From: a virus
Lineage: Duplodnaviria > Heunggongvirae > Uroviricota > Caudoviricetes
Virus record (IMG/VR): IMGVR_UViG_2698536618_000006
Coordinates: 1-9,928 of that record
Direction: 5' to 3' (one strand)
Length of the DNA stretch: 9,928 bases
A program made the translations under genes and the position numbers. The notes beneath the pieces were generated by a model. The model searched no databases, was not told the origin of the DNA, and worked only from the letters and a program-made list of their open reading frames with translations. The first letter of the stretch is position 1. Every line of letters begins with the position of its first letter. Below, piece by piece: positions 57 to 8,226 of this stretch.

Positions 57-689
57 TTACCTCTTTCTCAGGAAGTTTAGTCTCCAGGATTCCCGGGGCG
101 GTTCAATAAGGCGTTTTGCTTCCTCCTTTTCCAGCCATCTGACTCGCTTGTTTCTGACCGCTGGTATCTTGATGACAGGCGCTTTTTCCAGCCACTTCCA
201 GTCGCGTTCTGCAGCACGGAGAATGGCCTTTATCATGGCAAGATGCTTTGCCTTTGTCTGAGTTGATACTGGCTTTGGTTCATAAACAGGCAGTTCTTTA
301 CCTTTCCTGATGGCGGCCTGAACTTTCTGTTTCCATATTTCTTTCGTCTTTCTGTTATGCATTCTGCTTACAGCAGAGTAAATCTTTGCCTCCGAGATAT
401 CTTTAAGCCTTATACCCTCAAAATGTTCAAGCCAGAACTCAATCCGGCTTTTATCTGAATCGAGAGATTTTTTATCAGCTTTTTCCTCAAGCCATCTTAG
501 GCAGGCCTCTTCAAAAGTGACATCAGGTAAATCCCCTAGCTTTTCTACTCGCCAGAGTTCTGCTTTTCGCTTGTCGTGCAACTCCTGAGCTTGCCGCTTG
601 TCCTTTGTGCCAAGAGATTCCTTAATTCGTTTCCCGCCCGGGAGCGAATACGAGGCATACCATATTTCATTTCTGCGGAAGAGTGACAT
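57..689 (-). CDS. int: Tyrosine integrase, N-terminal 210 aa only; the ORF hits a stop at 57-59 before any catalytic domain, so it is probably frameshifted or truncated
   Basis: ATG at 689-687, TAA at 59-57. Sits directly downstream of and overlapping an excisionase-like gene, as in lambdoid int-xis modules. The 210 aa lack the R-K-H-R-H-Y catalytic region expected in a 350-410 aa integrase. A different minus-strand frame stays open from about 102 to the window edge. Confidence 0.55.
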
Positions 690-1822: not shown

Positions 1823-2380
1823 TCATGCAGCCTCCCGACGGGCAAGAATCCTTGAGCCGAACGCCATCAACTCTCCACGATCAACGGTCGTAAAGTGGCA
1901 GTGTGTACGGGGGTATGGGTGCCAGATAATGAGCATCGAGCCTTTATTATTTCCACTGACGGGTTTCTCAGTGAGTGGGTTAATAAATGCCAGTCGTCCT
2001 GCCGTGATGAATCTGACCTCACTGGCGGTTTGTATCGCTTCATGAAACCATCCGACAGATGTGTCAGCAGGCAATAACATTACACATCCCACACTACTGA
2101 ATTTGTTTTCAGTGGCTGCCTTTTTCACAAAAGGGGAAATATTGCTGTATGGTGGATTCAACCAGACATAACCAGAGGCATATCCCATTGCTTCAGGCCA
2201 TGAAGTGGTTAATGTGTTCTGCTCCTGTGAGATAAAAAGCCGACATAGTCGGTTTTTTTCGCTGGCGGCAGCATCAAGTTGAAAAACGAACTCTGCATTA
2301 AGCGCAGCAAAAATCTCTGGTGGTGTGCGCCAGCTGTCGCGATGTTCGGCAGGAGTATTGCTTCCGGTGAAATCAGTCAT
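1823..2380 (-). CDS. Phage Dam-type DNA N6-adenine methyltransferase (orphan, 185 aa)
   Basis: ATG at 2380-2378 with a GGGGG Shine-Dalgarno-like run upstream. Contains the NPPY catalytic motif (VWLNPPYSN) of N6-adenine/N4-cytosine methyltransferases. Size and context fit the small phage Dam family. No restriction endonuclease gene is adjacent. Confidence 0.75.
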   Translation of the reverse strand: MTDFTGSNTPAEHRDSWRTPPEIFAALNAEFVFQLDAAASEKNRLCRLFISQEQNTLTTSWPEAMGYASGYVWLNPPYSNISPFVKKAATENKFSSVGCVMLLPADTSVGWFHEAIQTASEVRFITAGRLAFINPLTEKPVSGNNKGSMLIIWHPYPRTHCHFTTVDRGELMAFGSRILARREAA

Positions 2381-5087: not shown

Positions 5088-5105
5088 CTGTTCATATCCT
5101 CACAG

Positions 5106-5133
5106 ATAAAAAATCGCCCTCACACTGGAGGGC
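5106..5133 (-). terminator. Intrinsic terminator on the minus strand (tL3-like position between ral and ea10)
   Basis: Stem GCCCTC (5116-5121) / GAGGGC (5128-5133) with a 6-nt loop, followed on the minus strand by TTTTTTAT (plus-strand A-run 5108-5113). Confidence 0.55.
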
Positions 5134-5290
5134 AAAGAAGATTTCCAATAATCAGAACAAGTCGGCTCCTGTTTAGTTACGAGCGACATTGCTCCGTGTA
5201 TTCACTCGTTGGAATGAATACACAGTGCAGTGTTTATTCTGTTATTTATGCCAAAAATAAAGGCCACTATCAGGCAGCTTTGTTGTTCTG

Positions 5291-5470
5291 TTAACCAAGT
5301 TCTCTGGCAATCATTGCCGTCGTTCGTATTGCCCATTTATCGACATATTTCCCATCTTCCATTACAGGAAACATTTCTTCAGGCTTAACCATGCATTCCG
5401 ATTGCAGCTTGCATCCATTGCATCGCTTGAATTGTCCACACCATTGATTTTTATCAATAGTCGTAGTCAT
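5291..5470 (-). CDS. ral: Ral (restriction-alleviation protein), C-terminally truncated by a premature TAA: 59 aa where the lambda-type frame predicts 66
   Basis: ATG at 5470-5468. Translation MTTTIDKNQWCGQFKRCNGCKLQSECMVKPEEMFPVMEDGKYVDKWAIRTTAMIARELG then TAA (5293-5291). The same frame continues QNNKAA to a TGA at 5272-5270, which would give the 201-nt lambda-type gene. Confidence 0.8.
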   Translation of the reverse strand: MTTTIDKNQWCGQFKRCNGCKLQSECMVKPEEMFPVMEDGKYVDKWAIRTTAMIARELG

Positions 5471-5540
5471 ACGGATAGTCCTGGTATTGTTCCATCACAT
5501 CCTGAGGATGCTCTTCGAACTCTTCAAATTCTTCTTCCAT
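5454..5540 (-). CDS. Small acidic ORF (28 aa), lambda orf28-like
   Basis: ATG at 5540-5538 with AAGGTGA Shine-Dalgarno. Translation MEEEFEEFEEHPQDVMEQYQDYPYDYDY. Its 3' end overlaps the ral start. Confidence 0.5.
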   Translation of the reverse strand: MEEEFEEFEEHPQDVMEQYQDYPYDYDY

Positions 5541-6280: not shown

Positions 6281-6553
6281 TCATCTCGCCGTCAGTTGTT
6301 TTGATTTCCTGTAGCCTGCCGCGTAAATGGCTACGTTTGGCAGGCAAACACTTCCACTGCATTCATCAACTTTCTTGCAGCGAAGACTTCCGAGTGATGC
6401 TGCTTTGTCTGCTCTGACGCAACCAGAGAGCTTTAGCGCAATTTTTCGCGCCAGTCGCTGCTCTTGCATCGCCTGTTCACGTTGAGCCTGTCTGCGTGCT
6501 CTGCGGCGATTTCTGGCGTTATCGTCAGCCAGATATGTAATGACTACTGTCAT
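6281..6553 (-). CDS. N: N-type transcription antitermination protein, 90 aa
   Basis: Internal ATG at 6553-6551 preceded by GGAGG (the track ORF begins at a GTG further upstream). Arginine-rich N-terminal motif DDNARNRRRARRQAQREQ and a C-terminus CLPNVAIYAAGYRKSKQLTAR like the N proteins of 933W and P22. First gene downstream of pL/nutL. Confidence 0.8.
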   Translation of the reverse strand: MTVVITYLADDNARNRRRARRQAQREQAMQEQRLARKIALKLSGCVRADKAASLGSLRCKKVDECSGSVCLPNVAIYAAGYRKSKQLTAR

Positions 6554-6863
6554 GTTGACCTCCGATGAAACAACTTTGGAATTGATAGTGATTGCAAAGT
6601 GGTTTCTGGCCCCTCGAATTGAGGGGCAGAAAGAGCATCTCGCCACCTAATAGGTCGATGCTCGGATCGAGAGATTTAATTAACCTCGGTTTTGAAGTTA
6701 TGCATTCACATAAATCCTCCTGTTGCATGTGCAGCATTGGCTGTGTTTGGCGGCTGCATTTCGCCTATGGAATTGACTTTGGCGGTGACGCGCCGGGTGC
6801 TTATCTTCCGGTTGCCGTCGTGCAGCTGCACTTCACGTCACCCCAAAGCCAACTACTCTTTGG

Positions 6864-7123: not shown

Positions 7124-7492
7124 TTAGTCAGCGAAGGTTAAGACGAGAATTACCTTAATGATGTCTGCTACAACAGACACGGCCATAGATAAACCAAAGA
7201 CGATCCAAGCCATAGAGATGTCTTCACTACCATCGTATAGAGTTCCGTAATCACTGGTATAAGGCGTAAATGTCGCGCCTTGATACAATAGGTATAAGCT
7301 TGATCCATAGAGGATAAATGCAGATATCCCTTGTATTGCTATGATCACCAGAATCATGAAACGAGCTGATCTATGCGCCCAAGCCTGGCTTATTTTTTCT
7401 GATAGAGATTTCGCAAGAAAAGCATGCGCTAAGCCGTAAATTGTCGAGATTGCCAACATCCCAAAAAAGCTTGCTATAGCGGTTCCAACCAT
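7124..7492 (-). CDS. Small integral membrane protein (122 aa, three predicted TM helices), co-transcribed downstream of cI; function unknown
   Basis: ATG at 7492-7490 with AAGGGG Shine-Dalgarno 5 nt upstream; the track's 7513 start is a TTG. It begins 17 nt after the cI stop on the same strand. Three hydrophobic stretches: residues ~2-27, ~45-70, ~94-120. It occupies the position that rexA/rexB hold in lambda. Confidence 0.65.
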   Translation of the reverse strand: MVGTAIASFFGMLAISTIYGLAHAFLAKSLSEKISQAWAHRSARFMILVIIAIQGISAFILYGSSLYLLYQGATFTPYTSDYGTLYDGSEDISMAWIVFGLSMAVSVVADIIKVILVLTFAD

Positions 7493-7509
7493 AAGCGCCC
7501 CTTGCGTGA

Positions 7510-8226
7510 TCAAACCAGCCTTAGTTTTGTCTCAATTGCAACGCCTATAATCTTGCAGTTTCCATTGATTGGCACGAGAGGCCATGCAGGATTAAGTCCC
7601 TTGAGGTATTTATTTCCGCCGTCGATTATCAGCTTCTTGAATGTTGCTTCGTTAGAGTCAGAAAGTTTTGCTATGACCAAGCTGCCGTTGACCGCCTCCC
7701 TTCCGGTATCGAAAAGAACGAATGTTCCCTCTGGAATGCTTAACCCAACCGGTGCCGTCATTGAATCACCTTCCACTTTAAGCCAGAACGCATTACCTTG
7801 AATATGCGCGTCAGACTCAAGCCAAACATCTATGTCTTTAATGGTGTATGGTTCGCATGCTTCACACCACGAGCCAGCCTGGATACTGCTTAACACCGGA
7901 TACCTCTTTCCTGCTCTGTATTCCCCTGCATACCTTACGTTGGCATCGCTCTTAAGGCTTTCTGCCTGTTCTGCAACCTTGGCAGCAATTGACTGGCTAA
8001 AATCAGCAATTGAGACTTGCAACAACCGTGCAAAACCAGATGCAACCTCAACGTTTAGCGCGTTTCTGCCATTAAGATAATGCCCTACCGCTCCTTGGGT
8101 GATACCCAGTTCATCAGCGATTGAGTATTGGGTTATTCCCAATTCTTTCTTTTTTGACTCATACAAAGCCTTAAGCCGCTTAGCGTCTTCGAGCTGTTCT
8201 GTCGTCAGTGATTTTTTATTTTCCAT
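7510..8226 (-). CDS. cI: CI-type prophage repressor (HTH N-terminal domain, LexA-like S24 autopeptidase C-terminal domain), 238 aa
   Basis: ATG at 8226-8224. The N-terminal region resembles lambda CI (LTTEQLEDAKRLKALYESKKKELGITQ). The C-terminal domain resembles 434 CI / P22 C2, with an Ala-Gly cleavage site (IQAGSW), the catalytic Ser in GDSM and Lys in FKKL. Divergent from cro with operators in between. Confidence 0.9.
   Translation of the reverse strand: MENKKSLTTEQLEDAKRLKALYESKKKELGITQYSIADELGITQGAVGHYLNGRNALNVEVASGFARLLQVSIADFSQSIAAKVAEQAESLKSDANVRYAGEYRAGKRYPVLSSIQAGSWCEACEPYTIKDIDVWLESDAHIQGNAFWLKVEGDSMTAPVGLSIPEGTFVLFDTGREAVNGSLVIAKLSDSNEATFKKLIIDGGNKYLKGLNPAWPLVPINGNCKIIGVAIETKLRLV

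Follow-up and report, generated by a model that had tools for sequence, protein, structure and literature searches.

The ral locus and its neighbourhood

The window, i.e. the whole stretch of DNA analysed here, is 9,928 nucleotides long and comes from a virus of the Caudoviricetes. It contains a short allele of the restriction alleviation gene ral, in a region with the gene order N - sieB (opposite strand) - orf28 - ral - hairpin - ea10-like - cIII - kil - gam - bet - exo. The slot of ral in the pL operon, between N/sieB and ea10-cIII-kil-gam-bet-exo, agrees with what is found in lambda, SfI and BS15R-A. The features discussed below are:

1823..2380, minus strand: phage Dam-type N6-adenine methyltransferase, 185 aa (PF05869, E 2e-56)
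5104..5135, minus strand: intrinsic-terminator-like hairpin with a T-run (scan: 8-bp stem, 5 GC pairs, then TTTTTTATCT)
5270..5290, minus strand: untranslated remnant of the ancestral ral tail and the old TGA (window sequence, lambda-type tail haplotype)
5291..5293, minus strand: TAA stop at codon 60 (alignment with lambda, which has AAA, Lys60, there)
5291..5470, minus strand: short ral allele, 59 codons and the TAA stop (ORF list, PF11058, PHROG 1055, identity to SfI)
5454..5540, minus strand: orf28-like acidic ORF of 28 codons, MEEEFEEFEEHPQDVMEQYQDYPYDYDY (lambda/SfI annotation; phrog_16060, E 7e-19)

The minus-strand ORF that runs from 5470 to 5291 encodes a protein of 59 aa, MTTTIDKNQWCGQFKRCNGCKLQSECMVKPEEMFPVMEDGKYVDKWAIRTTAMIARELG. 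It is recognised by the Pfam family PF11058 (Ral) with an E-value of 4.4e-44 and 148.3 bits, compared with a cut-off of 25, and by PHROG 1055, 'restriction alleviation ral', with an E-value of 2e-45. The Pfam match covers profile positions 1-59 of 66. Positions 60-66, the C-terminal tail, are unmatched and the protein is thus not a full-length match to the profile, which is a weak criterion because the length of the Ral tail varies across the PF11058 family.

When the ral region is aligned with the lambda genome (NC_001416, ral at 34087-34287), the sole difference in the stretch they share is a T for an A in the first base of codon 60. A 231-base query spanning ral is 99.6% identical to lambda, and 100% identical to SfI and phi458 (megablast). 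The first-pass annotation of this DNA had described the frame as lambda-type ral except for the TAA codon, and its account of the lambda sequence is accurate. The alignment also agrees with its proposal that one AAA to TAA change removes the residues KQNNKAA. As it had read as well, the frame continues after the stop, and the window has CAG AAC AAC AAA GCT GCC TGA, i.e. QNNKAA*, with the TGA at 5272-5270.

Upstream, the end of the orf28-like ORF overlaps the ral start codon, as it does in lambda (lambdap47). Downstream, the terminator-like hairpin at 5104..5135 stands between ral and the ea10-like gene, which we take to be the position of tL1 in lambda. A second, weak hairpin followed by a T-run (GCTGCCTGATAGTGGC CTTTATTTTT) extends over the old ral stop, window 5263-5294 on the minus strand, and is not above chance.

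At the DNA level the substitution changes TAAACA to TTAACA, a better -35-like hexamer. It is conceivable that the A to T change was selected for a DNA-level effect, by creating a weak leftward promoter toward ea10-cIII, and the promoter scan does return a single minus-strand site at 5294-5266 with 9/12 matches, where TTAACA lies 17 nt upstream of GATAGT. We consider this very improbable. The -10 element GATAGT is poor, the candidate has no comparative support, and a terminator-like hairpin and a tL1-like terminator follow directly downstream. As the one site found compares with 2.0 expected in shuffled sequence, i.e. the count is not above expectation, a promoter made by the mutation is given no weight.

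The window opens (positions 1-103) with the terminal part of an insertion sequence of the IS3 family, for which there are thousands of matches annotated as 'IS3 family transposase' and whose presence accounts for the contig ending here. The integrase ORF at 57-689 (minus strand) is interrupted by it, with 210 aa left compared with 387 aa in the related intD, and the prophage can probably no longer excise. The N gene (window 6281-6646, minus strand) is of the phage-21 type (PF25694). Its true start is uncertain, since the source record calls a protein of 90 aa and the longest ORF, from an upstream GTG, gives 121 aa. An ORF of 122-129 aa at 7124-7513 (minus strand) lies between N and the repressor, where rexAB is located in lambda. 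Its match, with an E-value of 7.5e-79, is to the family phrog_6534, whose function is unknown, and it is a candidate for a lysogen-expressed exclusion or defence gene.

The PF05869 methyltransferase is a common lambdoid accessory gene. The truncated ral and this Dam had been put forward as a notable pair, and here the earlier reading is not supported, with counter-examples in both directions. E. coli 2014C-3061 has the same Dam in the same slot beside a full-length 66-aa Ral, and SfI, phi458 and BS15R-A carry the TAA allele without that Dam. Among the IMG/VR loci with enough flanking sequence, Dam is present in 3/17 with TAA and in 6/26 with AAA (Fisher p = 1.0). There is no association between Dam and the short allele and no known mechanistic link, Ral acting through the HsdM of type IA enzymes, a pathway apart from that of a GATC-type orphan methylase (PMC3874165, PMC12707154).

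Prevalence and origin of the short allele

The short form, K60*, is a common and naturally segregating allele of lambda-type ral, which is already known, as RefSeq and a published phage genome both contain it. A 71-mer centred on the variant base has exact matches in 57 complete E. coli records, whose sources are pig, cattle, human, chicken, yak and pond water, and the lambda version of the same 71-mer has them in 434. Among IMG/VR viral contigs, 30 have ...GGT TAA and at least 120 have ...GGT AAA. At least 1000 contigs carry the exact 59-aa protein, which is named 'MULTISPECIES: antirestriction Ral family protein [Enterobacteriaceae]', and in E. coli BS15R-A it is called by PGAP as a normal CDS (WP_000213971.1). 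The Shigella flexneri phage SfI has the identical 231 bases and an annotated 180-nt 'restriction alleviation ral', and this phage could be induced and formed plaques and lysogens (PMC3636060).

The window being the whole of a short contig (9928 bases, CYGF01000063.1) from a draft assembly (GCA_001285485.1), the T at 5293 might be suspected to be a sequencing or assembly error. The window as such is absent from the complete E. coli records, where the best hit has 86% coverage and 98.5% identity. The same T recurs independently in the 57 complete E. coli records, in SfI, in phi458 and in the 30 IMG/VR contigs, and the occurrence of the exact protein on at least 1000 contigs also counts against an error. 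With identical DNA in independent finished genomes and phage genomes, this explanation is for practical purposes excluded. Excluded too is that the database matches stem from one contaminating sequence, as the flanking genes are varied.

The truncation is consequently not a notable property of this prophage, contrary to what the first-pass annotation had implied. A 59-aa Ral is natural in SfI, phi458, WP_000213971.1 and many prophages. Related phages (SfI gp42, phi458) naturally encode a Ral that ends at exactly this position, which the annotation had itself named as evidence against its reading.

The only copies that came from a scan of species-representative genomes were of the lambda-type AAA form, in unrelated taxa, and these are apparent lambda contamination and uninformative on prevalence. 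Exact lambda-type ral is seen at loci L115-L131 (genome_contigs) in assemblies of unrelated bacteria, among them Pseudoxanthomonas, Nocardioides, Paenibacillus, Bradyrhizobium and Shewanella. Most of these contigs are either very small or about 48.4-48.5 kb, many contig names give a low coverage, and the copies have the appearance of contaminating or spiked-in lambda DNA.

The homologues from Citrobacter, Salmonella, Cronobacter, Kluyvera, Proteus and Providencia all extend beyond position 59. Since distant homologues in other genera read past this position, K60 is ancestral and the TAA codon derived. In all 30 TAA loci of IMG/VR, the tail and the bases that follow it are of the lambda type (CAGAACAACAAAGCTGCCTGATAG), save for a C to T change, giving TAATAG, in three of them. 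The AAA alleles in IMG/VR are divided between the lambda-type and other tail haplotypes. That every TAA locus has the lambda-type tail (three with TAATAG) suggests a single origin of K60* on the lambda-type haplotype, followed by spread through recombination.

Several ral haplotypes bear the TAA codon: the lambda type, A21G, A21G with G111A, and A20C/G45A, the last being the second commonest haplotype among the full-length ral alleles. The repressors near TAA alleles are 100, 52, 44, 38 and 34% identical to the cI of the window, i.e. they represent at least five types. These several haplotypes and diverse repressors indicate that recombination has carried the allele from one lambdoid phage to another and that it is not recent. 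According to this scenario the A to T change would have happened once, on a lambda-type haplotype, and recombination would then have brought it into many different lambdoid phages and prophages.

Conserved core and variable tail of Ral

In alignments of 28-30 family members, the invariant or nearly invariant columns are all within M1-L58, and all of them are present in the window protein. The conserved residues include W10, C11, C17, C20, C26, the MVKPEEM stretch and W46...R56 E57 L58. Residues 11-26 (window 5393-5440, minus strand) form a nearly invariant CX5CX2CX5C motif, made of C11, C17, C20 and C26. The motif suggests a small metal-binding knuckle; AlphaFold is unsure in this region, with a pLDDT of about 50.

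Past L58 the tail is polar and differs among members of the family in sequence as well as in length, which goes from three residues in Pantoea/Erwinia to 10. The C-terminus reads RELEKLKAA in Salmonella, RELGKQNNKAA in lambda and RELENQKKQQDA in Citrobacter. Among the homologues aligned, none has a native end as short as the RELG of the window, which leaves one residue past L58. In the close lambda-type clade KQNNKAA is mostly preserved through synonymous changes, a pattern that hints at some constraint on the tail.

A search found no solved structure related to Ral. The AlphaFold model obtained from the alignment is of low confidence (mean pLDDT 59.7, pTM 0.40), too low for judging the role of the tail. 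In this low-confidence model residues 45-64 are predicted as one helix, residues 60-64 are located at the C-terminal end of the helix, and the last residues have a pLDDT below 50.

Probable activity of the 59-residue Ral

The small early protein Ral targets the HsdM of type IA restriction-modification enzymes (the EcoKI class) and turns a maintenance methyltransferase into a fast methylator of unmodified sites (reviews PMC3874165, PMC12707154). As the altered methyltransferase quickly methylates unmodified sites, the incoming phage DNA is modified and not cut. We estimate a probability of roughly 0.6 that the 59-aa Ral still alleviates restriction and enhances modification like the 66-aa form. 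Judged from the alignments, its activity is probably retained because the whole conserved core is kept. The product lacks only the poorly conserved polar tail, and the anti-restriction action would be preserved. In the literature searched we found no functional assay of the 59-aa Ral, and the Ral validated in a recent screen is the 66-aa HK544 protein, AFH20603.1 (PMC12373910).

Clear ral nulls are also present in IMG/VR. Among about 180 loci, a recurrent 103-nt internal deletion is found in about 10, and W10*, G19*, a codon-46 stop and the loss of the start codon were each seen once. The deletion lies between short repeats (…AATGGTG / …AAATGGG) and frameshifts ral, on both AAA and TAA alleles. 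Loci with this deletion are L012, L075, L076, L092, L111, L132, L133, L157 and others. Some full-length alleles have substitutions at conserved positions, e.g. C26Y and E25K, and the non-synonymous change T50A is also found. Among the nonsense alleles, K60* is present at 25 loci in the IMG/VR sample, compared with one each for codons 10, 19 and 46. No second lesion is seen in 25/30 TAA alleles, and those decayed further include L030, with G19*, and L132 and L133, both with the deletion and TAATAG.

It is also quite possible, if less probable, that K60* is a loss-of-function or strongly hypomorphic allele. According to this explanation ral is dispensable and only weakly selected in prophages, the short allele has become common by drift and by hitch-hiking with successful phages or clones, and its presence here would be a further sign of prophage decay. 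The prophage of the window has damage of its own, the IS3-family element having interrupted the integrase, and ral nulls are frequent in the same IMG/VR sample, where full-length alleles also bear many non-synonymous changes at conserved positions (e.g. C26Y, E25K, T50A). The tail has at least three residues past L58 in all homologues, and its preservation via synonymous changes in close relatives points the same way. However, no part of the family is less conserved than the segment that is lost, which is also variable in length, and K60*, found in inducible, plaque-forming phages, is about 25 times commoner than any other single nonsense allele, with most TAA alleles (25 out of 30) free of a second lesion. 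The high frequency of K60* proves no function, since ral is non-essential and clear nulls are common as well. Too few changes are restricted to the TAA allele (three synonymous, two non-synonymous and one nonsense) for constraint and drift to be told apart.

We think it unlikely that positive selection maintains K60* on account of some difference in behaviour between a Ral without the tail and the 66-aa form. Such a difference may concern its stability, the range of type I enzymes it works with, or escape from a host factor that recognises the lysine-rich tail. If true, it would explain both the excess of K60* over other nonsense alleles and its presence in at least five immunity backgrounds.

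The allele is overall of little significance, being already in the databases as an ordinary Ral. Its natural abundance still makes the 59-aa Ral a ready-made C-terminal deletion for mapping the regions of Ral that are needed. As ral is often inactivated in prophages, annotation pipelines should not presume that every ral is active.

Among known systems, lambda Ral (NP_040622.1, 66 aa, PF11058) has residues 1-59 identical to the window protein, and its gene likewise lies between orf28 and ea10 in the pL operon and overlaps orf28 in the same way. The window Ral differs from it by being without the last seven residues, KQNNKAA, owing to the AAA to TAA change in codon 60. SfI Ral (gp42, YP_009147488.1, 59 aa) and the RefSeq entry WP_000213971.1 are the same protein as that of the window and are annotated as a normal CDS, while in Escherichia phage phi458 the DNA is the same as the window allele but ral is not annotated. 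The genes around ral are not the same, SfI combining a lambda-like cI/rexAB region with an Sf6-type N and having no Dam in its exo-int slot, whereas in the window there are a different repressor, a phage-21-like N, sieB and Dam.

The Pantoea/Erwinia proteins (P0040, P0043, P0056, P0059) also belong to PF11058 and have a natural length of 59 aa, with three residues past L58. They differ from the window Ral in being 68-74% identical to it and two residues shorter at the N-terminus. Their tail, RELAAM or RELAAK, is a native end, whereas in the window there is a nonsense codon followed by intact tail codons. A functional analogue of Ral is Lar of the Rac prophage. Lar, reportedly described by King and Murray in 1995, is a small protein with the same two effects on type IA enzymes, less restriction and more modification. 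Lar and Ral belong to different sequence families.
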